Shown here piece by piece: positions 37,135 through 51,060 of a DNA stretch of 64,000 bases. Under the pieces are notes generated by a model. That model was given only the letters and a program-made list of their open reading frames with translations. It made no database searches and was not told the origin of the DNA. Made by a program: the position numbers and the translations under genes. Position 1 is the first letter of the stretch. Every line of letters starts with the position of its first letter. The DNA comes from an uncultured delta proteobacterium (GTDB lineage: Bacteria > Myxococcota > Myxococcia > Myxococcales > Myxococcaceae), in contig CAVYSY010000058.1 of NCBI GenBank assembly GCA_963771175.1, positions 40,275 through 104,274 of the forward strand. Reading direction: 5' to 3'.

Positions 37135-38029
37135 TCAGCGGGCCGAGCGCGCGGCCTCGGCCAGCCGCTTCTGCGACAGGCTCAGGTAGTTCTCGTCCAT
37201 GTCGATGCCCACGTAGCGGCGGCCCAGCTTCAGCGCCGCCACGCCCGTGGTGCCACGATGCCGTTGAACGGGTCCAGCACCAGCGCGTCCTCGGGGGTGC
37301 TCGCCTCGATGACGCGCTCCAGCAGCGCCACCGGCTTCTGCGTGGGGTGGCTGCCGTGCGCCTTCTCCTCGCTTGCGCGGCGCCGTCATGCGTCCACACG
37401 CGGCCGGACTCGTCGGCGGCCGAGCTCCTCGTCGCCGGTCTGCGGCAGCGCCCACACGTCGCGCATCTGCTTGCCGCCGTTCTCCGCCTTCATGCTTGCG
37501 CGTAGTTGAACGTGTGCTGCAGCTTCGCGGCCGGCTTCGGCGAGCGCCCAGATGAGGATCTCGCGTCGAGTGCGTGAAGTAGCGGCACGCCAGGTTGCGG
37601 GCTCGCGTTGGGCTTGTACCAGGTGACGGTGTTGAGCAGCTTGTAGCCGAGCTTCTGCATCGCGAAGCCGACCGAGAAGATGACGTGCTGCGTGCCGCTC
37701 ACCCAGATGGTGCCGGTGGGCTTGAGCACGCGCTGGCAGGCCTTGAGCCACGCGGTGGTGAACGCGTGGTCGTCCTCGACGCCGCGCGACACGTCCCAGC
37801 CGCCCTTGTTCACCGCGGCGCGCTTGCCGCTCTTGCAGGTGAAGCCACCGTTGGACAGGAAGTACGGCGGGTCGGCGAAGACCATGTCGAACGTTCCGGG
37901 CTCGAACTGCTCGAGCAGCGCCAGGCTATCGCCCTGGTAGAGCCGGTACGCGTCGCCACGGGCGAACTCGCTATCGCGCAGGGTACGCGGGACAAGCTTC
38001 AGGGCAGGAGCTGCGGCTTCCGAGGACAT
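37135..38029 (-). CDS. Orphan N6/N4 DNA methyltransferase (beta class); frameshifts
   Basis: FADPPY motif IV precedes HPTQKP and VLDPFNG motif I. Confidence 0.88.
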
Positions 38030-38237
38030 CTCGCCTCCGTCAGGGGTCGTCGTGACGGCGCGAATGTGCGGGCAACATTCTGCTACGTCCAATTTCTGGC
38101 CTGTAGCACCCTGAAATTTGACGAGGAACGCGAGCTCCAACGCGAGCCCCTGAAACGCCGCGAGCACGGTGGGAGGACCTCTCGTGGAGGCCTCCGACAC
38201 CGTGCTCGGCGGGTACTACGAAGCTGTGCGGAAGAGA

Positions 38238-38534
38238 CTAGGCCTTGGCCTTCTTGGCGGTCTTCTTCGCGGGGGCAGTGCCCTCGGCCGGAGCAGCGGC
38301 GGCACCCTCGGCGGGAGCAGCAGCCTCGGCGGCCGGCTTGGCCGCGTACTTCTTGCGGAACTTCTCCACGCGACCCGCGGTGTCGAGCAGCTTGTACTTA
38401 CCCGTGAAGAACGGGTGGCAGTTCGAGCACACTTCCACCGTGAACGAGCCACGGGTGGACTTCGTCTCGACGGTGTTGCCGCAAGCGCAGGTGATGCGAG
38501 AGGGCGGATAGACCGGATGCAGATCAGGCTTCAT
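38238..38534 (-). CDS. rpmE: 50S ribosomal protein L31 (zinc-binding type)
   Basis: [21 protein letters not shown] and GRVEKF; Ala/Lys tail. Confidence 0.96.
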
Positions 38535-38658
38535 GTTCGACGACTCCCGCGCCTTGCCCCCACCCCCAAGGTGGGAGGTCTGGCGTTTTTGAGGTAGGCC
38601 GGCGCTTATAACGGCGCGCCGGCCCAGGCACAAGGCCCGCGACCGGGCCCCGCCTGGG

Positions 38659-39777
38659 CTAGTGGGATGCGGAACCGGGCGGTTCGATTCGCTCCACGCG
38701 CTTCTTCAGTTCAGGATCATCCCCCACGTCGGACCCCAGTTGGAGATACGAGAGGCGGTGGGTGCGCTTGAGCCCCTCCGTGCTCCCTCCCGTCTGCAGC
38801 ACCAGAATCTTCCGCCGGGACTCGAAGCTGGCCACGGCCTCCTCCAGCGCCTTGCGGGCCGACTCGTCCTTGAGGGTAGCCAGGCGAGCCTTCGCCTGCT
38901 GGATGTTGGTGTCGAGGATTTTCAGGTTCTCCCGGGCGCGCTCCGCCTCGGTGAGGTCCACCGAGGGGCCCTTGCCGTCCACGAAGAGCTCCAGGCGAGC
39001 GAGCTGACGGCCCCGCTCGCCCGGGGGGATGAGGGTGGCGTACTCGTTGCGCTGCGCCACGCCCGGGCCCCGGCCCTCGTGCGACTGCACGATGAAGTCC
39101 ACGGCGTTGCCCGCCTGCTGGGAGAGCTTGACGGCCTCCATGTAGGGCACCGCGGCGAGCACCACCACCACGTCCACCTGCTCCTTCGCGCGCAGGCGAC
39201 GGGCCTCGGCGAGGGCCGCGGGCAGCGGAGGCCGACCCACCACCCCCGTCTGTCCACCCACGGGCCCCTCGGGGGAGAGACCCACGAGGCCGAGCTTCAA
39301 CCCGCCCTCCGTCACCACCGTGGAGGCCGGGAAGAGCGGCTTGCCCCCCGCGTCCACCAGGTTGGCCGACAGGAGCTTCAGCTTCTTCGCGCCCTTGGAG
39401 GCCTTGGCGAGGAAGTCCGTCCCGAGCGACAGGTCGCGTGCGCCCACGGCCATGGCCCGGGTGCCCACCGCGTCCATCTGCTCGAGCACGAATCGCGCGC
39501 GCTCCCCTGCCTTCGGGTCCCCATCCGGCAGGGGGGACTTGAAGAGCGCGTTGCCCGCATCCAGCACCAGCACCGGCACACCCTTCGCGGACTCCGTCGC
39601 GATGGCCGTCTTTCGTCTGGCCAGACCGCCAGACGGGTTGTGGCGTCAACCACAGGGGGCGATCTCGCCCCCGTTGTCTCCGGTGAACAGGAGCACCAAT
39701 TGCTTGGGCGCCGCGCCCGCCACCAGCGGCGTCAGCAGCAGCGCGAGCACGGCGAGCAGCGCCGGACGCAGTCTCAT
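38659..39777 (-). CDS. Secreted UshA/5'-nucleotidase-like selenoprotein (TGA at 39646-39648 read as Sec)
   Basis: Signal peptide, [27 protein letters not shown] in frame with LDAGN, AVGARDL, LSANL; SECIS-like hairpin follows. Confidence 0.85.
39614..39635 (-). promoter_or_regulatory. Bacterial SECIS-like element
   Basis: CGTCTGGC-GGTCTG-GCCAGACG perfect 8-bp stem with G-first loop, 10 nt 3' of the in-frame TGA. Confidence 0.8.
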
Positions 39778-40643
39778 CACTTGTTCCCCTTCTTCGGCGC
39801 CGGGGTCGCCTTCTTCGCCTTGTCCAGCTCGGCCAGCCGGCTCTTGGCCGTCTTCGCCGCGTCCGACTTCGGGTAGCCCTTCACGAGCTCCTCGAGCGCC
39901 AGCCGCGACTCCTCCTGCATCTTCAGCTTCTTGAAGCACTCCGACGAGCGCAGGTAGGCGGTCGGCGTGGAGTCGGACTTCGGGTGCTCCTGCAGCAGCT
40001 TGCCGTACTCGAAGAGGGCCTCGCGGCACTTGTCCTCGGAGTAGTAGGTCTCGCCCAGGCCGAAGTGGGCCTCGGCGGCCAGCGCGTCCTTCGGCCACTT
40101 CTTGAGGAACTCCGAGTAGAGCTGCCGGGCCAGCGCCACGTCCCCCGCCTTGGCCTTCTCCTGCGCCAGCGCGAGGAACTCCTTCTTGTCCGTGGGCCGC
40201 TTGAGCTCCTCGGCCTTCTTCCTGGCCTCGGCCGCCTTGAGGGCCTCGTCGCCCTTGAGCGCCAGCAGCCGCTTCTCGGTCTCCTCGTTCGTCTTGGCGA
40301 GCGCCGACTCCAGCTCGCCCATCTTGTAGAGGTACGTCTCCACCTGGCCGCGCAACTGGGCCAGGTCCTCCACCGTCTTCTGGAGCTGGATGCCGATGTC
40401 CGCTCCCGTGCGGCGCGAGGCGGAGTCCAGGCTCTTCAGGGCCTTGGACACCTCGGCGATCTTCTCGTCGATGCGCGGCAGCGTGGCATCGAGCTGCTCA
40501 CGGGTCCGTTTCAGCTCCGCCTGGAGCTGCGCCTGGGTGGCATCGAGCTTCTCGATGCGGGCTTCCAGCGAGCGTCCGCGGTCAGCGGGGTAGAAGCACC
40601 CGGAGATCACGAGCGGGAGGGCGATCAGAGCAAGCCTTCGCAT
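39777..40643 (-). CDS. CpoB/YbgF-like coiled-coil plus TPR lipoprotein
   Basis: Lipobox ISG-C; LAQLRGQVE coiled coil; AHFGLGETYY and YPKSDAAKTAK TPRs. Confidence 0.8.
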   Translation of the reverse strand: MRRLALIALPLVISGCFYPADRGRSLEARIEKLDATQAQLQAELKRTREQLDATLPRIDEKIAEVSKALKSLDSASRRTGADIGIQLQKTVEDLAQLRGQVETYLYKMGELESALAKTNEETEKRLLALKGDEALKAAEARKKAEELKRPTDKKEFLALAQEKAKAGDVALARQLYSEFLKKWPKDALAAEAHFGLGETYYSEDKCREALFEYGKLLQEHPKSDSTPTAYLRSSECFKKLKMQEESRLALEELVKGYPKSDAAKTAKSRLAELDKAKKATPAPKKGNK

Positions 40644-40720
40644 AGGGGGGCGTATCTTAGGGGCAAACCCCTCATCCCGCTCGGGCTTCTTCGCTGTGCC
40701 GGAGTCCGCCTGCCCGCTCG

Positions 40721-42037
40721 TCAACGCGGCGTGGCGGGTCCCGCCGCCCGTTCCACGCGCTCGATGGCGCGCTCGCAGGCCACCAGGAGCCGGGCATTGT
40801 TGAGGTAGAAGGGCGTGGCGCGGGCCCTCCCCTCCTCCAGCGAGCGCAGGGCCCGCCGGTACTCCTCGGCGGCCTCGGCCAGGGCCCCCCGCTGCTCGAG
40901 CACCATCCCCAGCAGGTAGCGCGCAGCGGCCAGGTCCGGATCCAACGAGAGGCAGCGCCGCAGCGTCTCCGCCGTCTGGGGACTCGCCACCTCCCCCGCG
41001 GCCCACTCCAGTGCCTGGGCGAAGAGGGCATCCGCCTCCGTGTGCGGGCCAGACACCTCGGGCTGTCCCTTGCGAGAAGCCTCGCCCTTCGCGGGTGTCG
41101 CCGGAGGGGGGGCCGTGTCCTGCCGGCTCCCCACGGACGGCAGCCCACTGGAGCTCGGCGTCCTCACCAGGGGCTCCCGGAAACCCACCGACGGCAAGCC
41201 ACTGGAGCTCGGCGTCCTCACGGCGCCCTCCTGCGCTCGGGCGTAGAAGAAGGCCTGCTCGCAACGCACGGTGCGCAGGCTCGGCGGGGCGCGCAGCAGC
41301 GGCTCGGTGGCGGAGAGCATCAACATGCCCTCGGGCGCGAGCCTCCCGGCCAGCGACACCACCACCTGCTCGAAGGACTCGGGGGTGAAGTAGATGAGGA
41401 CGTTGCGGCAGGCGATGACGTCGAACCCCTGCCCCTCCGCCGCCGTCGGGTACGGCGTCTCCATCAGGTTGTGGCACTGGAAGCTCGCCCGCTCCTTCAG
41501 CGGCCCCACCAGGGTGAAGCGGCCCGCTCCGACGGGCACGAACCAGCGGTCCCGCACCATGGGGTGCACCCGCTGCATCTGCTCCGAGGTGAAGCACAGC
41601 TCCCGCGCCCGCGCGATGGCCGACTCCGAGATGTCCGTGCCCAGCACCGTGCTGCCCGGGTCCGCGCCCAGCTCCGCGAGCATCACCAGCAGCGTGGCCA
41701 CCTCCTCGCCCGTGGCACAGCCGGCGCTCCACAGCCGCAGCGGCCGCCGCATCCTCGTCACCATCGGCTCCAGCACGTGCGTGCGCAGCGCCGCGAGCTG
41801 TGACTCATCCCGGAAGAGCTCCGTCTTCTGGACGGTGATGGCGTCGACGAGCTCGGCGAAATCCGCGGCGCCCGAGGGCGACTGCAGGTGCAGCAGGAAC
41901 TGCACGCTCAACCCGCCCGGCCGCGCCGCCAGCTTCTCATCGAGCCGCCGACACTGCAGGTCGCTCAGGGCCATGCCCGTCCGCCGCGCCACCAGGGAGT
42001 GGACGGGGCCGTAGCCTGGCGGAAGTGTGGGCGCCAC
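40721..42037 (-). CDS. cheR: CheR methyltransferase with C-terminal TPR (CheR3-like)
   Basis: TELFRD, WSAGCATGEE, GTDIS and CRNVLIYF. Confidence 0.93.
   Translation of the reverse strand: MAPTLPPGYGPVHSLVARRTGMALSDLQCRRLDEKLAARPGGLSVQFLLHLQSPSGAADFAELVDAITVQKTELFRDESQLAALRTHVLEPMVTRMRRPLRLWSAGCATGEEVATLLVMLAELGADPGSTVLGTDISESAIARARELCFTSEQMQRVHPMVRDRWFVPVGAGRFTLVGPLKERASFQCHNLMETPYPTAAEGQGFDVIACRNVLIYFTPESFEQVVVSLAGRLAPEGMLMLSATEPLLRAPPSLRTVRCEQAFFYARAQEGAVRTPSSSGLPSVGFREPLVRTPSSSGLPSVGSRQDTAPPPATPAKGEASRKGQPEVSGPHTEADALFAQALEWAAGEVASPQTAETLRRCLSLDPDLAAARYLLGMVLEQRGALAEAAEEYRRALRSLEEGRARATPFYLNNARLLVACERAIERVERAAGPATPR
41130..41221. repeat. 54-bp period direct duplication in the cheR linker
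   Basis: VRTPSSSGLPSVG encoded twice. Confidence 0.75.
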
Positions 42038-42043
42038 CGGGTC

Positions 42044-43105
42044 TCAGCGCCCAGCCGGGAGGGTCTCACCGCGAACCACCCGCACCAGCGCGCCCGCGAT
42101 GTCATCGCCGTGGACGAGATGGTCCACCGCCTTGCGCGCCACCGCCGTGCCCGGCATCCCGAACACCACGCATGACTCCTCGTTCTGCGCGAGCGTCAGG
42201 CCTCCGGCCTGCTTGATGGCCAGCATGCCCTCCGCACCGTCCTCGCCCATGCCGGTGAGGATGAGCCCCATCGTGCGCCGCCCGTAGGCCTTGGCCGCGC
42301 TCTCCAGCAGCACCGTCCCCGAGGGCATGTGCCCATCGCGCTCCACGCCCGAGCGCAGCGCCACCCGCCCGCGGAAGGGGATGTGCATGTGCAGCCCCGG
42401 CGGGGCGATCAGCACGTTGCCCGGCAGGAGCTGCTCGCCGTCCTGCGCCAGCCGCACCTTCAGCTTGGACGAGTTGGCCAGCCAGCCCGCCAGGGAGTCG
42501 GCGAAGGCCGCGTTGATGTGCTGCACGATGACGATGGGCGTGGGGAAGTCCGCCGGCAGCTCGGACAGCATCCGGAAGAGGACCTGCGGGCCGCCCGTGG
42601 AGCTGGCCACCGCCAGCACTCCGTACGGCATCCCCATGGGCGCGGGCGTCACCACACCGCCCGCTCCCGGCAGCGGCGGCCGGCGCTTGCCGTGGATGTG
42701 CCGGATGACGCGCACCGAGGACAGCAGCTTCACCTCGCGCGACAGGTTCCACGCCTCCAGCCCGGCGTCGATGGAGGGCTTGATTTGAAGCGCCAGCGCA
42801 CCCAGCTCCAGCGCCCGACACGTCAGCTCCGGCGCCTGCTGCCGCGGATCCGCGGTGAGCATCAGGATGGGCGTCGGCACCTCGGCCATGATGTGCTCCA
42901 CGGCCGTGAGCCCGTCCATCACCGGCATCTCCACGTCCATGGTGATGACCTGTGGGCGCAACTCACGCGCGGCCTCGAGGGCCTCCTGACCGTTGTTGCA
43001 GGTCCCGACGACCTCCAGGTCCGGATCCCGACTCAACGCTTCGCAGATGAGTTGTCGGCAGATGTGCGAGTCGTCAACGACCAGCACCGACACTTTCTTG
43101 CCCAT
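42044..43105 (-). CDS. cheB: CheB methylesterase (CheB3-like)
   Basis: REC domain plus SSTGGP, VQH and LTGMGEDG. Confidence 0.95.
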
Positions 43106-43186
43106 GTGGCTTCCATACCCCGTGCGCGACCCCGCGGAGTATACCCGATGTGGCCGGGAGTCCTCGGGGTGTCCTTCACCAGCACG

Positions 43187-45643
43187 TCAGCCGAGGAGCC
43201 GGCCCACCACATCCACCAGATCCTGACGCACCAGGTCACCCTTGGTGATGTAGCCATCCGCGCCGGCCGCCAACCCACGCTGCCGGTCCTCCTCTCCTCC
43301 ACGCGTGGTGAGGATGACCACCGGGAGGACCTTGTGGGTGGGATGAGCCTTGAGCCGGCGGGTGAGCTCCAGCCCGTCCACCCGGGGCATCTCCAGGTCG
43401 CTGCAGACCAGGTCCACCTTGGTGTTGGCGAGCAGGTCCAGGGCCTCCATGCCATCGGCGGCCATGATGATGTCGTAACCCACGGCCTCCAGCAGCGAGC
43501 CGATGAGCTCCCGGGTGAGGGGGGAGTCATCCACCACCAGGATGCGGCGCCGGGGAGCGGGGGTGGGGGCGGGACGGGCGGTCGCCGCGCGCTGCGCCCG
43601 GAGGCCGGCCGCTCCCTGGGCACTGGCGATGAGATGGGCCGCGGACAGGACCATGGCCAGCCGGCCATCCGCCAGCGTGGTGGCTCCGGTGAGGTGCGGG
43701 AAGCGGGCCATCAACCCCTTCAGCGGGAGGATGGCCTGGACCCGCTCCTCGAGCACCCGGTCCACCGCCAGCGCGGCCACGGCGCCCTGGCTGCGCACCA
43801 CCAGCACCAGCGCCCCCTCGTCCGCCGCCTGGTCCGGGCTCAGCCCGAGCAGCGCCCCCAGCGAGGCGAAGGGCATGGGTTGGTCGTCCACCTCCAGCAC
43901 CGCCCGGCCGGCCACCTCCTTGAGCTGCGAGGCCTCGACCTTCAGCGCGCGCGAGACATGGACGGCGCTCAGGCAGAGCGTCTCCTCGGCCACCTTCACG
44001 AAGAGCAGCGGGGCCACCGTGAGGGACACCGGTACCCGCAGCTCGAAGCGCGTGCCCCGGCCCGGCGTGGACTCCACCAGCACATCGCCACCGAGCGCCC
44101 GCAGGGAGCTGCGCACCGCGTCCAGCCCCACGCCGCGCCCGGAGATGTCCGTGGCCACCTCGCGCGAGGTGAAACCGGAGAGGAAGATGAGCTCGCGCGC
44201 GCTCTGGTCCGACAGCACCGCCGCCGAGGCCTCGTCCATGAAGCCCTTGCGCACCGCGGCCCGGCGCAGCACCGCGGGCTCCAGCCCCACCCCGTCGTCC
44301 TCCACCCGCAGCACCAGCCGGTTGCCGTCGCGCGCCGCACCCAGCGTCAGCTTGCCGCGCGGGTGCTTGCCCGAGGCCACCCGGTCCACCCGTGACTCCA
44401 GCCCGTGGTCCAGCGCGTTGCGCACCAGGTGCAACAGCGGATCCCTCAGCGCCTCCACCACCGCCCGGTCGGCGCGGGTGTCCTCGCCGTCCACCACCAG
44501 CTCCACTTCCTTGCCCAGCTCGCGCGCCAGGTCGCGCACCATGCGCGGGTAGGGCTCGAAGAGCACGGAGAGCGGCAGCATGCGCAGGCGCTGCACCTCC
44601 TCGGCCACGTAGCCCAGGTCGCGCAGCTCCTCGTTGGCCAGCAGCTTCGCCTCGCGGTGGAGGGTGGCGGCCAGCTCCTTCGCCTTGCCGAGCCGCTCGG
44701 CCAGCATGGCGGCCGCCGGACCCAGGTCCTCCGCGGCCCGCGCCAGCAGGCTCAGCTCGCGGGCCAGCTCCAGGCGCCGGAGGGTAGCCAGCTCGCGGCG
44801 GCGCGACACCTGGGTGAGGTTCGTCACCGCGCTCGTCAGCAGATCCAGGCTCGCCACGCCGATGCGTACCGAGCCATCCGCGCGAGCGTCCGCCGAGCGC
44901 ACCGCGGGCACGGTCGTCGTCCGGGGCGGCGGCTCGGGGCTCGCCGGCGGCATCTTCCCGATGGTGGCCGCGGCCGTCGCGGTGGCATGCGCGCGCGGGG
45001 GCTCCACCGCCACGGTCCGTCCCACCGGCGGCAGGTGGGGCGTGTCCATCATCCGGGGCGGCACCACCAACGAGGGCGCCGGAATCCCGAGCGGAGCCGA
45101 GCCCCACGCGGGGGTGACCTCCTCGCTGTCCCGGAGCTCCTTCTCCCGGGAGTCCTTGCCCTTGACGTCCTTGCGTGCCGAGGCAATGGACGGGTCCACC
45201 CGCAGCGCGACGGAGTGGGCCGGGCCCTGAGTGGACGCGACCGCCCCCGGGAGGCTGGACACCTCCGTGCGGGTGCACTCGCGCAACCAGCGCACCAGCT
45301 TGTCCACCTCGGGAGGCGTCTGCTCGGGCTGGGAAGACGTGCCCGCCAGCACCAGCACCGCGTCCGCGGCCTGGAGCAGCATGTCGATGGAGCGCTCGGA
45401 CAGCGCGTGCTCGGCGCGCTCGGTGGAGCGCACCAGCTCCTCCATCTCGTGGACGACGGAGTTGATGTCGTCGAAGCCCATCATCCGGGCCTCGCCCTTG
45501 AGGCCATGCAGCTCGCGCAGCACGGTGCGCCCGGCCTCCAGGCTGGCCCCCGTCTCCAGCTCCATGATGCGGCGGTTGACGCGCTCCAGGCGCACCCCCA
45601 CCAGCTCACGGAACTGCTTGAGCAGCTTCTCGCGCGCGCTCAC
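43187..45643 (-). CDS. cheA: Hybrid CheA-REC histidine kinase (CheA3-like)
   Basis: LHGLKG Hpt, HLVRNALDHG, SGRGVGLD, CheW-like P5 and C-terminal REC. Confidence 0.95.
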   Translation of the reverse strand: MSAREKLLKQFRELVGVRLERVNRRIMELETGASLEAGRTVLRELHGLKGEARMMGFDDINSVVHEMEELVRSTERAEHALSERSIDMLLQAADAVLVLAGTSSQPEQTPPEVDKLVRWLRECTRTEVSSLPGAVASTQGPAHSVALRVDPSIASARKDVKGKDSREKELRDSEEVTPAWGSAPLGIPAPSLVVPPRMMDTPHLPPVGRTVAVEPPRAHATATAAATIGKMPPASPEPPPRTTTVPAVRSADARADGSVRIGVASLDLLTSAVTNLTQVSRRRELATLRRLELARELSLLARAAEDLGPAAAMLAERLGKAKELAATLHREAKLLANEELRDLGYVAEEVQRLRMLPLSVLFEPYPRMVRDLARELGKEVELVVDGEDTRADRAVVEALRDPLLHLVRNALDHGLESRVDRVASGKHPRGKLTLGAARDGNRLVLRVEDDGVGLEPAVLRRAAVRKGFMDEASAAVLSDQSARELIFLSGFTSREVATDISGRGVGLDAVRSSLRALGGDVLVESTPGRGTRFELRVPVSLTVAPLLFVKVAEETLCLSAVHVSRALKVEASQLKEVAGRAVLEVDDQPMPFASLGALLGLSPDQAADEGALVLVVRSQGAVAALAVDRVLEERVQAILPLKGLMARFPHLTGATTLADGRLAMVLSAAHLIASAQGAAGLRAQRAATARPAPTPAPRRRILVVDDSPLTRELIGSLLEAVGYDIIMAADGMEALDLLANTKVDLVCSDLEMPRVDGLELTRRLKAHPTHKVLPVVILTTRGGEEDRQRGLAAGADGYITKGDLVRQDLVDVVGRLLG

Positions 45644-47469
45644 CCACCACCCCCGGGCGTACCCCCAGGCGTCGACGAGTCGATCTGGAAGCGCTCCACC
45701 ACGCCCCGCAAGTCCCTCGCCAGCGAGGACAGGTCTCCATTGGCGCTGATGACCTGCTTGGTGGCGTTGTGGCTCTGCTGGGTGATGCGGAGGATGTCCG
45801 CCATCGCCTCGGCCAGCAGGTCCGTGCCGCCCTGCTGCTGCTGGGTGGCCAACGAGATGGCCCGCACCGCGTCCGAGGTGCGCCCGGCCAGCTCGACGAT
45901 CTGCCGCAGCGACTCGGAGACCTGCTGCGCCAGCGTGGTGCCCGTCTCGGTGGCGCGCACGCCGCCCTCGGTCGCCATCACCGCCGCGCCCGAGGCGTCC
46001 TGCACCTCCTCGATGAGCCCTTCAATCTCCTTGGTGGACTCGATGACGTTCTCCGCCAGCCGGCGCATCTCCGCCGCCACCAGTGAGAAGCCCTGCCCCA
46101 CCTCGCCCGCCTTGGTGCCCTCCAGCTCGGCGTTGAGCGCCAACAGGTCCGACTTGTCGGCCACCCCGTTGATGAACTCGACGATTTTACCGATCTGCTG
46201 CACCCGCTTGTTCAACCGGGCCACCGCCGCGGCGATGGCCTGGTTGTCGTGGCGCATGCGGTTCATCGTCTCGAGGAAGGCCTCGGCGCTGGCCTGACCG
46301 CCCTTGGCCGCAGCGAGCGTCTGTGGGCGATCTCCGCCACCGAGCCCGCATTCTCGGCGATCTGCCGCGCCGAGCGCGCCAGCTCCTCGGTGGTGGCACT
46401 CGTCTCGTCCAGCGAGCTGGCCTGCTCGGCGGCGCCCGCCTCGTAGCGGGTGGAGGTGAAGAGAATCTCCTCGGTGGTGGAGCCGATGCGCGAGCCGGCG
46501 CGCTGCAACTGCGCCAGCACGTCCGCCAGGTGGGCCCGCATGGTGGAGAAGGCGGCGGAGACGGACCACACCTCATCCTCGGCGGGGATGATGCGCGGGC
46601 GGCTCATGTCGCCCTCGGCGATGCGGTGGGCCTCCTCGGCCGAGCTGGCGCATGGGACGGCCGAGAATCGTCCCCCCCAGGTAGGCGGCGGCCATGGCCA
46701 CTCCGAAGATGAGCAGGCACAGCGCCCCACCGGACCTGAGGGCCTCGAAGCGCAGCATGTCCACCAGTTCCGCCTGCCGCTCCGGGCTGGTCTCCATCAG
46801 CCGCTCGAAGGCCCGGTCCGCCAGCGCCACGGAGACGTCCCAGATGAGCGCCGCCGGCGTCACCACGACGATGGCGGTGAAGATGACCAGCCGCGGGCGG
46901 ATCTGCGAGCGCCGGGGCGCCGCGGCGATGGCCTGCACCGGCGTGAGCCCCAGGGAGCCCATGTCCAGCGCCACGGCTCGGGCCCTCATCGTGATGAGGC
47001 CGTACGTCAGCAGCGCGGAGAGCGGACCGAAGAGCAGCCCCGGCCAGACCATCCGCAGCGCCAGGAGAAGACTCATGGAGGGGCTCGCCACCCACATCGC
47101 CACGTTGCCGAGGACGGAGGCGACAATCCACAGCACGAGCGTGGAGTAGAAGGCGAAGTCCGCGAGGAGGTGGACCTCCATCACCGCCTGCCCGAGCCGC
47201 TCGGGCTCGACGGGCCCTGCCGCGGCCTCCAAGCCCCGCAGCACGCGCAGCCGGCGCAGGCAGAGGACGACCTCCACCGCCAAGGCCAGGAGGGAGAACA
47301 CCCCCATGAGCAGGAGGAACAGCGGGAAGCTCTCGCCGAGCTGCTCGCCGAGGGTGAGCTGCCCGTAGCGCCCCGCCAGGAGGACGGTGGTCAGGTTGGC
47401 GTAGAGGAGCGGCAGCAACAAGCGGCGGCTGTAGGGACGCCGGGTCCGGAGGATGCGCAGGCTCGACAT
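45640..47469 (-). CDS. Methyl-accepting chemotaxis protein (Mcp3B-like); frameshifts near 46650 and 46320
   Basis: TM region MSSLRILRT...; KSDLLALNAELEGTKAGEVGQGFSLVAAEMRRL. Confidence 0.9.
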
Positions 47470-49270
47470 CAACCCTCCCTCTCCGCCACGCAGAAGCGCT
47501 GCACGGTGCCCTTCAGGTCCCTCGCCAGCGCGGCCAGGTCCGAGTTGGCGGCCACCATCTGCTGGGTGGCCTCGGCGTTCTCCTCGGTGACGCGCAGGAT
47601 GTCGCCCATGGCCGCGGCGAGCTGATCGGTGCCCGTCTGCTGCTGCTGGGTGGCCAGCGGAGATGGAGCGCACCGCGTGCGACGTCTGCCGCGCCAACTC
47701 GAGGATGAGGCCCAGGCTCTGGTCCACCTGCTCGGCCAGCGAGGCCCCGCGCTCCGTCGTCTTCAGACCCGCCTCCGTCGCCATCACCGCCGCCTGGGTG
47801 GCGTCACGGATTTCGTCGATGAGCCGTTCAATCGCCAGCGTGGAGGACAGCACGTTCTCCGCCAGCCGCCGCATCTCCGCGGCCACCAGCGAGAAGCCCC
47901 GGCCCAGGCTCGCCCGCCTTGGTGCCCTCCAGCTCGGCGTTGAGGGCCAGCAGGTCCGACTTGTCGGCGATCTCGTTGATGAACTCCACCACCTTGCCGA
48001 TCTGCTGCACCCGCTTGTTGAGCCGCACCACCGCGTCGGCGATGGCCTGGTTGTCCTCGCTTCATGCGGTGCATGGCCGCGAGGAAGGCCGCCGCGCTGC
48101 TGCTGCCCACTCTGCGCCGCCGCCAAGGTCGTCTCCGCCATGGCCGACACGGACCTCGGCGTTCACGGCGATCTGCTGGGCCGAGCGCGCCAGCTCCTCG
48201 GTGGTGGCGCGCGTCTCGTTGAGCGAGATGGCCTGCTCCCCCGCCCCGCTCTCCTGGTCCGCCGAGGTGGCCACCAGTTGCTCGGTGGTGGAGGAGATTT
48301 GCAGCCCCGCGCGCTGCAACTGCACGAGCGCCTGGGCGAGCTGCGCCTGCATGCGGGTGAAGGCGGCGGAGACGGCCCACACCTCGTCCTCCGCGGGGAT
48401 GAAGCGAGGGGTGCGCACCTCGCCCTGGGCGATGCGCGTGGCGTCCTCCGAGAGGGCGCGCAGGGGCTCGGCGAGCGCCGTGCCGGCCACGTACGCCGTG
48501 CCGAGCACCAGCAGCACCACCAGCCCGGCGAGCCCTCCCAGCGGCAACCCGGTGGCCCGGCGCGCCCGGTGCACCACCTCCCGCTGCACCTTCGGATCCT
48601 TCGTCTGGAGGATCTGATCGAACGTGCTCACGGTGCGGGTCACCGACACGTCGAGGATGAAGACGGACGGGCTGAGCACCGCCAGGGCGGTGAACAGCAC
48701 CAGTCGCCGCCTCAGCCGCAGCTTCTCGGGAGGAATGGCGGCGATGACTTCCTGCGGGGACAGCCCCTGCGCGGCGATGCGCTCGGCGGTCCGGCGGCTG
48801 CGGCGCACCACCATCAGGTAGACGAGCATCGCGGACAGCGGCCCGAGCGACAGGCCCACCAGCCCGATGCGGAACCCCATGGTCCAGTGGGCGTCCGCCA
48901 GGGGGGTGAACGTCACCGCCAGCAGCAGCGTGCCGCCGAACCAGCCCTGGAGGGTGAACCAGAAGCAGCGTCCGGGAATGCGACGCACCTCCTGCAATGC
49001 CCGGCGCAGGTTGTCCGGCGTGGAGGGCAGCCGCCCGAACTCCAGCGCCCGCAGCACGCGCAGCGCGTGGCGCGCCTGGGCGCCGGACAGGGCGGCGTTC
49101 ATCCCCAGCACCAGCACCATCAGCCCGAGAAAGAGCCAGCCACTGCCCGCGGGCTGCGCGTGGGTGAGCTGGCCATACAACACCGCCAGCACCAACCCCA
49201 ACGCGCTCCCCAACCAGGACGGACGCGTGGTCCAGACCGACAAGCCCTTCAGCCCCTCCCGTGCGCTCAA
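47469..49270 (-). CDS. Methyl-accepting chemotaxis protein (Mcp3A-like); frameshifts 47650-48150
   Basis: Multi-TM N-terminus, AEDEVWAVS HAMP, KSDLLALNAELEG; TTG start overlaps upstream stop. Confidence 0.88.
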
Positions 49271-49644
49271 GCGGCCTCCTGGGACGAGGGCGCCAGGAAG
49301 CGCCCGAACTCGACCAACGACATCAGGGGCCACAACGCCCCTCGTGCCTGGACGAAGCCGCGCAGACTGCCGCCCGCGATGTGGCGCAGCAGCGCCGGCG
49401 CCGGCAGCAGGGTGAGCGACTCGGCGTCGATCTCCAGCGCGTCCACGCCCACCGCCTCACCGGTGGCGGCCACGAGGATGCGCTCGGCCCCGGAACTCTC
49501 GCCGAAGCCCGCGCGCGCCGAGCCGGCCGTTCCGCCGAAGGTGCTGGGGGACTCGATGGTGGCCACCTCGTGCGCGGCGAACGCCACGCGCTCGGCCCCC
49601 GCCTGGCAGAGGAGCATGCCCGCGATACGACTGCCCGTGAGCAT
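49267..49644 (-). CDS. Degenerate CheW-like protein of the Che3-type cluster
   Basis: AVGVDAL, LRGFVQARGALWPLMSL; operon position. Confidence 0.7.
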   Translation of the reverse strand: MLTGSRIAGMLLCQAGAERVAFAAHEVATIESPSTFGGTAGSARAGFGESSGAERILVAATGEAVGVDALEIDAESLTLLPAPALLRHIAGGSLRGFVQARGALWPLMSLVEFGRFLAPSSQEAA

Positions 49645-49647
49645 CTC

Positions 49648-50082
49648 TCAGCTTCCCTGGCTGAGGTGATCGAACAGGCCCTCGGGGTCGATGACCGCCA
49701 CGTCGCGCTGGGCGCTACGGGCGGGCCCTCGCAGGTGGAGGTGGACTCCGCTCGCGCCCAGGGGCTCCAGGCGACCATCCACCTGAGAGACTCCGGCCAC
49801 CCGGCTGGCCGTGAGGGCCAGGGTGCCGCGAGCCAGCCGCACCAGCACCGCCCGGCGGGTGGGCTCGCTCTCCCCGGATACGAGAATCCCCATGTCCACC
49901 ACCGGGATGACTTCGCCCCGGTGGGCGAAGACTCCCAGCAGATGCCCGGGGGCACCGGGCACTCGCGTCAGCTCGGGAAAGCTGACGACTTCCGCCGCGC
50001 ACTCAGCAGGCACGGCGTACCAGCTGCTACCGCAGGCGAACACGAGGTAGGACTGCCGCGTTTCGGTCTCTGTCGAGGCCAT
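49648..50082 (-). CDS. cheW: CheW coupling protein
   Basis: LTRVPGAPGHLLGVFAHRGEVIPVVD. Confidence 0.9.
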   Translation of the reverse strand: MASTETETRQSYLVFACGSSWYAVPAECAAEVVSFPELTRVPGAPGHLLGVFAHRGEVIPVVDMGILVSGESEPTRRAVLVRLARGTLALTASRVAGVSQVDGRLEPLGASGVHLHLRGPARSAQRDVAVIDPEGLFDHLSQGS

Positions 50083-50110
50083 CAGGGTGCGCAGCCTACC
50101 TCAAGGAACG

Positions 50111-50860
50111 CTAGCGTACGAACTCGACGCGACGGTTGGCTGCCCAGGCCTCTTCGCTGGAGAGGTTCTCGGTCGGCCGGTTCTCCCCGTAACCCACCGT
50201 CTTCATCCGGTTGGCCGGCACGCCCAGGTCCACCAGGTACTTCTTCACCGAGGCGGCGCGCTTCTGGGAGAGCTGGAGGTTGTACTCCTCGGTCCCCCGC
50301 TCGTCCGCATGCCCGGCGAGCTCGACGGCGCCCGTGGCACCCGTCTTGAGGCACTCGGCCAGCTCGCCCAGGCGAGACTGGGCCTCGGGGGAGAGGGAGG
50401 CCTCGTTGAAGCCGAAGCGCAGCGGCTCCCAGTTGCACTCGGCCTTCTGGGCGGCCACGCACCGGTTGGCCTGGCACTCCTGGCCCTCGGCGCAGTCGGT
50501 GTTGGAGGCGCAGGCGCCCGGCGGCGTCACGCAGCGGCCCTTCTGGCACTCCTGGATGCCACCGCACTGCTCCTTGCCGGTGCACTGCGGCTCGGCGCAC
50601 TTGCCGGCCTCGCAGATCTTCCCGGGGCACTGCTCATCACGCGAGCACTCGGGGCCCTTGGGCACGCACTTGCTCTCCTGGCACGCGAAGCCCTCCTTGC
50701 AGTTGGCGTCGGTGGCACACTCCTGACACTGGCCGCTGACGCACACCTCGCCCTTCTCCTGGCAGGTCTCGTCGCTCTTGCAGTTGGGGTAGGTGGGCGG
50801 GCAGCCCGCCAGCACCGTCACGGCAAGGGCAAGCCCTGCGACCATCGAAATCCGACGCAT
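50111..50860 (-). CDS. crdB: Cys-rich OmpA-domain lipoprotein (CrdB-like)
   Basis: Lipobox LAG-C, Cys-rich repeats, GHADERG..YNLQLSQKRA and NRRVEF; first gene of Che3-type operon. Confidence 0.85.
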   Translation of the reverse strand: MRRISMVAGLALAVTVLAGCPPTYPNCKSDETCQEKGEVCVSGQCQECATDANCKEGFACQESKCVPKGPECSRDEQCPGKICEAGKCAEPQCTGKEQCGGIQECQKGRCVTPPGACASNTDCAEGQECQANRCVAAQKAECNWEPLRFGFNEASLSPEAQSRLGELAECLKTGATGAVELAGHADERGTEEYNLQLSQKRAASVKKYLVDLGVPANRMKTVGYGENRPTENLSSEEAWAANRRVEFVR

Positions 50861-51060
50861 TCTTCCTCCAAAAAGTGACGACCCACGGACGGGTCAACCC
50901 GCCCGCGTCTAGCCCGCTCTGGAACGTCGAGTCAAAGTCTTTTGTCCCTGTCGGAAGGTTGCACCCCAAGCCACTCGGGGCCCGAGAAACCCTTGATAGG
51001 ACGAAGAATTTCCGAGACGCGGCGCCCGGGACAGGGCCTCCGCCAGGGCCCACCCGCGAC

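Follow-up and report, generated by a model that had tools for sequence, protein, structure and literature searches.

A probably recoded UGA codon in a Myxococcaceae genome

When two open reading frames (ORFs) share a frame and are parted by a TGA codon, the question is whether they are two genes or one gene whose TGA is read through. This question was raised by a locus in a 64,000-nucleotide stretch of DNA (the window; GenBank assembly GCA_963771175.1, contig CAVYSY010000058.1, positions 40,275 to 104,274 of the forward strand) from an uncultured member of the Myxococcaceae. On the minus strand of the window, an ORF at 39646..40098 stopped with TGA at 39646-39648 after ...GEIAPCG, and the ORF at 38659..39579 shared its frame. 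The locus very probably represents one gene (38659..39777, minus strand; 372 codons and a TAG stop, with one UGA read through) for an exported UshA-like selenoprotein, in which UGA is recoded as selenocysteine (Sec) and which lies in an operon with a CpoB-like lipoprotein gene.

Translation of the TGA as U yielded a single 372-residue product with the C-terminus ...PPGSASH, in agreement with the first-pass annotation of this DNA, which had proposed from the letters alone that the TGA joined the two ORFs. A codon alignment of 51 loci placed the predicted Sec codon (39646..39648, minus strand) at residue 44 in the motif A-P-C42-G43-U44. The start ATG and an N-terminal signal peptide of about residues 1-23 (39709..39777, minus strand) were assigned from the hydrophobic N-terminus, with the cleavage site inferred from an A-G-A motif, and a comparable hydrophobic N-terminus was present in all 51 homologues. 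Because the signal-peptide region contained no Cys, the selenoprotein is predicted not to be a lipoprotein. The length of 372 aa corresponded to full length when compared with relatives of 344-383 aa, and the 372-codon frame was free of frameshifts, despite indel errors elsewhere in the assembly. As for a sense codon in place of the TGA, which the first-pass annotation had also considered, public DNA contigs from four runs (four studies) spanned the UGA codon, and no difference at this codon was among the differences listed.

Conservation of the Sec or Cys position

Strong matches were found in 49 of the 61 genomes of the same family in the Genome Taxonomy Database (GTDB), the Myxococcaceae, that were searched in six frames, with the genome of the window included. 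The 51-locus set consisted of 50 fetched loci and one paralogue from the window's own genome. The aligned codon was TGA in 39 of these loci (39 genomes) and TGC (Cys) in 12, the two kinds of codon that the first-pass annotation had anticipated at this position in homologues. The flanks of the codon were nearly constant, with FTGDNGGE[IV]APCG before it and [RK]xNPxGGLARRK after it. In a 49-row alignment, G33, D34, C42, G43, U/C44, P48, G50, G51, L52, R55, G75, N76, and D115 were invariant, and H233 was variable. The same TGA, flanking residues, and a GGUCU loop in the RNA downstream were shared by the 39 loci from 39 genomes, a recurrence that points to more than chance. The 42 TGA-bearing genomes of the family include G049, which is marked unpublished (41 without it), and the in-frame TGA of G019, G051, and G049 is known from the six-frame search table only.

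A quick maximum-likelihood tree required eight changes between Sec and Cys, and its well-supported branches forced at least four. The window's own genome (G000) also carried a Cys paralogue (APCGC) outside the window, at about 83090-84206 of contig C3 on the plus strand, which was 59% identical, was frameshifted near its 3' end, and lacked a cpoB-like neighbour. Comparable Cys paralogues were detected in G015, G059 (two), and G022. The presence of Cys paralogues in genomes with the Sec form indicates that some genomes hold Sec and Cys copies together.

A hairpin downstream of the UGA codon

A bacterial hairpin of the selenocysteine insertion sequence (SECIS) type was located at 39614..39635 (minus strand), where the codons for P-S-G-G-L-A-R-R lie. 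The first-pass annotation had described a perfect 8-bp stem with a GGTCTG loop, 10 nt after the TGA, and this structure was reproduced by folding: the 44 nt from the UGA onward formed 10 unpaired nt, followed by the 8-bp stem CGUCUGGC/GCCAGACG with the loop GGUCUG, at -19.2 kcal/mol (z = -3.04), and one of 200 shuffled sequences folded equally well. The same annotation had called the hairpin codons TCT, AGA, and CGA unusual for the genome. Among 1175 long ORFs with high G+C content at third codon positions, TCT accounted for 2.0% of Ser codons, AGA and CGA accounted for 0.8 and 4.9% of Arg codons, respectively, and GGT accounted for 8.2% of Gly codons. All four rare codons (TCT, GGT, AGA, and CGA) were present among the nine hairpin codons.

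Comparison of the homologues separated the two forms. The sequence GGTCT was kept in all 39 TGA forms versus 3 of 12 Cys forms, and GGC-GGT-CTN was the codon triplet in 39 of 39 versus 1 of 12, with Gly-Gly-Leu encoded at the loop by TGA and Cys forms alike. The loops of the TGA forms were GGUCUG (35 loci), GGUCUU (2), and GGUCUC (2). The three loop-proximal pairs were standard in 34-39 of the 39 TGA forms; the outer stem pairs were variable, and in some forms an A was bulged out or the register was shifted. The mean energy of the 28-nt stretch was -12.9 kcal/mol for the TGA forms (n = 39) versus -8.6 kcal/mol for the Cys forms (n = 12). These alignments indicate that the hairpin is selected as RNA, and that this selection is confined to the TGA forms.

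In the fdhF-type SECIS of Escherichia coli, a hairpin follows soon after the UGA, a G and a U of its apical loop are bound by SelB, and the hairpin contains the string GGUCUG. The element in the window resembled it in lying 10 nt past the UGA, in the position of its loop from 18 nt, and in the loop GGUCUG, whereas its perfect 8-bp stem lacked the bulged U. An Rfam search of 39400-39900 gave chance-level matches only, of which the best was RsmW (27.5 bits; gathering score 52), and no bacterial SECIS match; Rfam has no matching model.

Selenocysteine machinery in the genome

The genome contained a tRNA-Sec (71.4 bits, above the Rfam cut-off; anticodon tca) and, outside the window, selD (380.8 bits; G000:C26:42756-43685, minus strand), selA (G000:C39:363957-365112), and selB (G000:C31:280302-282214). 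All of the Sec genes to which the first-pass annotation had pointed were thus present, selA and selB in a frameshifted state that is weighed below. The selD gene itself appears to encode a selenoprotein: it had an in-frame TGA (HCAG-U-AAK), after which came a strong hairpin of 8 bp with a GUU loop. This hairpin began 28 nt from the first base of the UGA, a spacing unlike that in the UshA-like gene.

Across the family, a selA match (E <= 1e-30) was obtained for 49 of the 61 genomes, and all 42 TGA-bearing genomes had selA, although only as fragments in the window's own genome. A Cys-form orthologue occurred in seven genomes, three of which had selA and four of which did not. Of the 11 further genomes in which selA had no match, none carried the TGA form and four carried the Cys form. 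Since the relatives are not independent, this co-occurrence serves as a consistency check and not as a statistic.

A 5'-nucleotidase scaffold with a degenerate metal site

The mature protein (38662..39708, minus strand) was assigned a 5'-nucleotidase N-domain (metallophosphoesterase) fold with a degenerate metal site on the basis of AlphaFold2, Foldseek, and alignment. The AlphaFold2 model, which was built from the 49-row alignment, had a mean predicted local distance difference test score of 92.1 and a predicted template modeling (TM) score of 0.89. The top Foldseek matches were E. coli UshA, CD73, and the Thermus 5'-nucleotidase 2z1a (E about 1e-18, TM 0.54-0.61), and the alignments with low root-mean-square deviation covered approximately 280 columns of targets of 505-525 residues. 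In the model, a long two-helix hairpin (residues 275-329; 38791..38955, minus strand) stood where true 5'-nucleotidases have their nucleotide-binding C-terminal domain and was followed by one further strand.

The metal and catalytic motifs of 5'-nucleotidases are DxH, GD, GNH(E/D), H, and GH. The corresponding positions here were DNG, GN, GARD, A for H, and a last H that was unconserved. Relative to 2z1a, NDTH was changed to GDNG, DAGD to DAGN, GNHE to GARD, and LSHLGY to LAAVPY, the last with SH replaced by AA. Given that these residues were replaced and that the C-terminal domain was absent, nucleotidase activity is very unlikely. The surviving Asp34, Asn76, and Asp115 were invariant beside C42/U44, and the model places the invariant Cys-Gly-Sec in the loop that directly follows the scaffold's first strand. 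The protein therefore shares with UshA and CD73 (1ush, 1hp1, 2z1a, 4h2i) the fold of the N-terminal metallophosphoesterase domain, a periplasmic location (export being predicted here), and a GGxARR helix start. It differs from them in the replacement of most metal and catalytic residues and in having the two-helix hairpin instead of a C-terminal nucleotide-binding domain.

The last residue was His in 39 of 49 homologues, with EPPGSASH and EPTYAGSH as typical tails. The tail of the window protein (...EPPGSASH; 38662-38685, minus strand) was modeled with low confidence. The terminal His may reach back to the Cys-Sec site and act there as a ligand.

Relationship to catalogued UshA-like selenoproteins

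A selenoprotein listed as "COG0737, UshA-like, CxU" was catalogued in the 2008 GOS survey (PMC2398784), and the UshA-like CxU selenoprotein also appears in two reviews, whose entries for it give no function (PMC9312934; PMC13188914). The entries in the latter tie it to the NCBIfam model NF041198 and list NF049981 as family 2 (CxxU) (PMC13188914). NF041198 ("UshA_like_PCGU," UshA-like (seleno)protein) was the best NCBIfam match of the window protein, over profile positions 11-374 of 519.

NF041198 exceeded its cut-off in 14 of 121 genomes of the phylum, mostly of one other family. Nine full members were approximately 550 residues long and contained EPCGC, DAGN, and the helical segment; their C-terminal region carried three CxxCH motifs and one CxxxCH motif, and one member that was scanned matched PF13435 (Cytochrome_C554) at 60.8 bits. 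The full members in the phylum were about 27% identical to the window protein and had no cpoB-like neighbour. The window protein resembled NF041198 in the aligned domain, the P-C-G-U/C motif at the same place, the degenerate DAGN metal site, the helical segment past the domain, the N-terminal export signal, and the interchange of Sec and Cys. In contrast, it ended at profile position 374 and lacked the C-terminal multihaem cytochrome domain (positions 375-519), it was a Sec form whereas the full members found in the phylum were Cys forms, and its gene was coupled to that of a CpoB-like lipoprotein. It shared with NF049981 ("UshA_like_Sel_2") a short UshA-like domain (262 positions) and a Sec near the N-terminus, but had the CxU instead of the CxxU spacing. 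By these comparisons of profile and motif, the window protein represents a short version, lacking the haem tail, of the catalogued UshA-like (seleno)protein family.

A table of matches also listed candidates of the short type, with one in-frame TGA, in roughly six further families of the phylum. In two loci (G132:C269 and G104:C1), a UshA-like N-terminal part with a single TGA was embedded in open frames 919-933 aa long, and these may represent other fusion architectures of the UshA-like domain.

Coupling to a CpoB-like lipoprotein gene

Directly upstream of the selenoprotein gene, on the same strand, lay a gene for a CpoB/YbgF-like lipoprotein of 288 aa (39777..40643, minus strand), with a lipobox (...ISGC), a coiled coil, and C-terminal tetratricopeptide repeats (TPR). 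Its stop TGA shared one base with the ATG of the selenoprotein gene (TGATG; AACAAGTGATG, distance -1). The protein matched TIGR02795 tol_pal_ybgF (82.9 bits; cut-off 90.1), NF008068 CpoB (52.8 bits; cut-off 383), a model named "CpoB-like predatory vesicle lipoprotein," and PF13174 and PF13525 (TPR_6, YfiO). E. coli CpoB is not known to have a lipobox, in which it differs from the upstream protein of the window. Among 41 aligned CpoB-like proteins (that of the window, at 39780-40643 on the minus strand, and those of 40 loci), all had a lipobox containing Cys, the mature protein started with a nearly fixed CFYPADRG(R/K)xLE, and C16, R22, G23, and E27 were invariant.

The TGATG coupling noted in the first-pass annotation was real and belonged to a conserved arrangement: in 45 of 46 orthologous loci (45 of all 51 loci), the cpoB-like gene immediately preceded the selenoprotein gene on its strand. 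The one orthologous locus without the cpoB-like gene ended at a contig edge, and this gene was absent from the five Cys-paralogue loci. The distance between stop and start over the 45 loci was -4 in 36, -1 in 3 (including the window), and 0 in 3. Upstream of the cpoB-like gene, 14 close relatives had cheR, as in the window, and four more distant relatives had a gene for an OmpA/Pal-like lipoprotein directly upstream. The gene order in E. coli is pal-cpoB, which the order in these four relatives resembles. No third partner of the operon was conserved: rpmE was downstream of the selenoprotein gene in 27 of 51 loci, and in 17 inspected loci without an rpmE match the downstream ORFs varied by locus. 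No cytochrome gene was found within 1.5 kb of the selenoprotein gene in the inspected loci. The conserved operon of the cpoB-like and selenoprotein genes is the new element of the finding.

Proposed mechanism and alternative explanations

The features of the locus are consistent with the following scheme. SelB carrying Sec-tRNA(Sec) would bind the hairpin, so that the ribosome reads the UGA at 39646-39648 as selenocysteine, in an operon where translation would be coupled to that of the CpoB/YbgF-like lipoprotein gene, and a Sec-type (secretory) signal peptide would direct the product to the periplasm. There, a UshA N-domain scaffold that has lost most of its two-metal ligands would carry Cys42-Gly-Sec44 instead. 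The Cys-x-Sec pair would form a periplasmic redox centre that cycles between selenol/thiol and selenenylsulfide. Long forms would exchange electrons through their fused haems. The short form would rely on a separate partner for its electrons, and the CpoB-like lipoprotein may meanwhile keep the short form at the envelope.

Several observations weigh against one gene for a Sec-containing UshA-like protein with this function. The assignment to UshA-like CxU selenoproteins in the first-pass annotation led to the right family neighbourhood, with scores that stayed below the cut-offs: 158.9 bits against NF041198 (149.4 bits in the six-frame search; cut-off 275) and 42.7 bits against NF049981 (residues 27-296; cut-off 140). 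A Pfam search of the read-through protein gave no family at E <= 0.1. When 71 nt were folded, another structure had the lowest energy and z was only -1.17; the hairpin is thus to be seen as a local element and not as the global optimum. In addition, selA changed frame at least seven times, all in one direction, and selB twice. These frame changes would fit a gene or Sec system that is decaying in this strain, with selA and selB as true pseudogenes and a TGA that now truncates the protein. We consider this very improbable, as the essential rpoB (G000:C25:96748-100856) was likewise split over three frames, the shifts in selA ran in one direction as systematic indel errors would, and selD, the tRNA-Sec, the TGA, the hairpin, and the 372-codon frame were all intact; the Cys paralogue of the same genome was frameshifted as well. 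Since rpoB was also broken, the estimated genome completeness was 81.66%, and selA was unbroken and above its cut-off in five of five close relatives, the breaks in selA and selB are most likely assembly indel errors. That the TGA is an ordinary stop, which leaves a leader ORF of 43 codons and, from GTG 39579, a distinct protein of 306 residues, is the model that gene callers give; the closest public proteins have 303-307 aa (82% query cover), and the neighbouring gene also ends in TGA. This explanation is hardly credible, however, given that the 22 codons between the TGA and the GTG are among the best conserved, with P48, G50, G51, L52, and R55 invariant, and that 12 homologues read straight through with Cys. 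Moreover, truncation would cost the product its signal peptide, D34, and the fold's first strand, and the conservation of the hairpin at the RNA level is specific to TGA forms.

If Sec is inserted, its role has to be weighed between electron transfer and metal binding, the two possibilities that the first-pass annotation had named in predicting a redox or metal protein. The best argument for a redox centre is that long relatives fuse the domain to a multihaem cytochrome. The short form, on the other hand, has neither the haem domain nor a conserved redox partner within 1.5 kb, and nothing found here favours redox chemistry over metal binding; the redox mechanism, the likelier of the two, seems to us as easily right as wrong. 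Alternatively, Cys-Gly-Sec together with Asp34, Asn76, Asp115, and perhaps the C-terminal His could bind a soft metal or metalloid (e.g., Cu, Zn, Ni, Hg, or As/Se/Te species) in a periplasmic binding, chaperone, or detoxifying protein, a role that we hold to be possible but on the unlikely side. A former two-metal scaffold that keeps an invariant acidic and amide ligand beside C42/U44 would suit it, as would the absence of a haem domain and of a nearby redox partner, and the low-confidence tail, which bears the terminal His of 39 of the 49 homologues, could fold back. Nevertheless, this His was missing in 10 of 49 and did not track Sec versus Cys (32/38 versus 7/11), no metal-resistance genes lay beside the gene in the window, and the cytochrome fusion of the long relatives points to electron transfer.

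A broader proposal, which we offer as an improbable speculation, is that the redox or metal site of the selenoprotein serves the cell envelope. The selenoprotein and the CpoB-like lipoprotein would then be a fixed envelope module that stems from a pal-cpoB unit's 3' end and persists in most of the Myxococcaceae (GTDB), a largely aerobic family. In this module, a Sec site on a dead nucleotidase scaffold would carry out a redox or metalloid step for the maintenance of the outer membrane or cell wall. If so, an envelope function would depend on selenium in organisms that, by the account of the reviews, seldom maintain selenoproteins.

Annotation of the family and significance

The nearest public proteins were up to 91% identical, were named from Archangium and relatives, and had 303-307 residues; they were annotated "5'-nucleotidase" and started downstream of the Sec codon (e.g., at MLLLDAGN). 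Full-length public matches of 367-378 aa also existed, and the two that were inspected were both Cys forms. As the public models of relatives start past the Sec codon, "hidden," the word used in the first-pass annotation, is fair for this subfamily. The same annotation's "aerobic myxobacterium" rests solely on the naming of these nearest public proteins from Archangium. The truncated public models lose both the signal peptide and the active-site motif, and the gene model needs correction. Because the curated family model misses close relatives, this annotation error will be repeated in each myxobacterial genome.

Selenoproteins are seldom kept by aerobic bacteria, as stated in the section of a 2026 review on this point (PMC13188914). 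Within the Myxococcaceae, the predicted exported selenoprotein was kept in 42 of the 61 sampled genomes, with Cys where selA was not found. The family has been known since 2008, and what is modestly new is a short form, widespread among myxobacteria, in an operon with a CpoB-like gene. The kind of system is not new, and the known mechanism of Sec insertion is left unchanged. UshA-like selenoproteins have been catalogued for all this time with a function that is still a prediction. The relatives include non-pathogenic myxobacteria that are easily grown and genetically tractable, in which the function would be open to experiment, and the conserved coupling to a CpoB-like lipoprotein provides a concrete first functional hypothesis. 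A literature search of titles and the beginnings of abstracts, with subscription papers outside its scope, found no description of myxobacterial selenoproteins.

Other features of the neighbourhood

Scans of 38200-40900 gave no promoter-like site and one terminator-like site, which was inside rpmE and did not stand above shuffled sequence. Many single-base indel errors occurred in the assembly, and the gene calls of this genome are expected to be fragmented. Downstream of rpmE lay a DNA methyltransferase-like ORF (37490-38215, minus strand) with the motif FADPPYFLSNGG, whose C-terminal part looked out of frame, probably through another indel error.

On the other side, a chemotaxis cluster (within 40721-50893, minus strand) separated the cpoB-like gene from a gene for a Cys-rich OmpA/Pal-like lipoprotein (50114-50860, minus strand), and no TolB-type gene was present just beyond the latter in the window. 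In this cluster, apparent pieces of cheA and of a methyl-accepting chemotaxis protein gene looked frameshifted. The cluster also contained cheR (40724-42037), cheB (42047-43186), and cheW (49651-50100), all on the minus strand.

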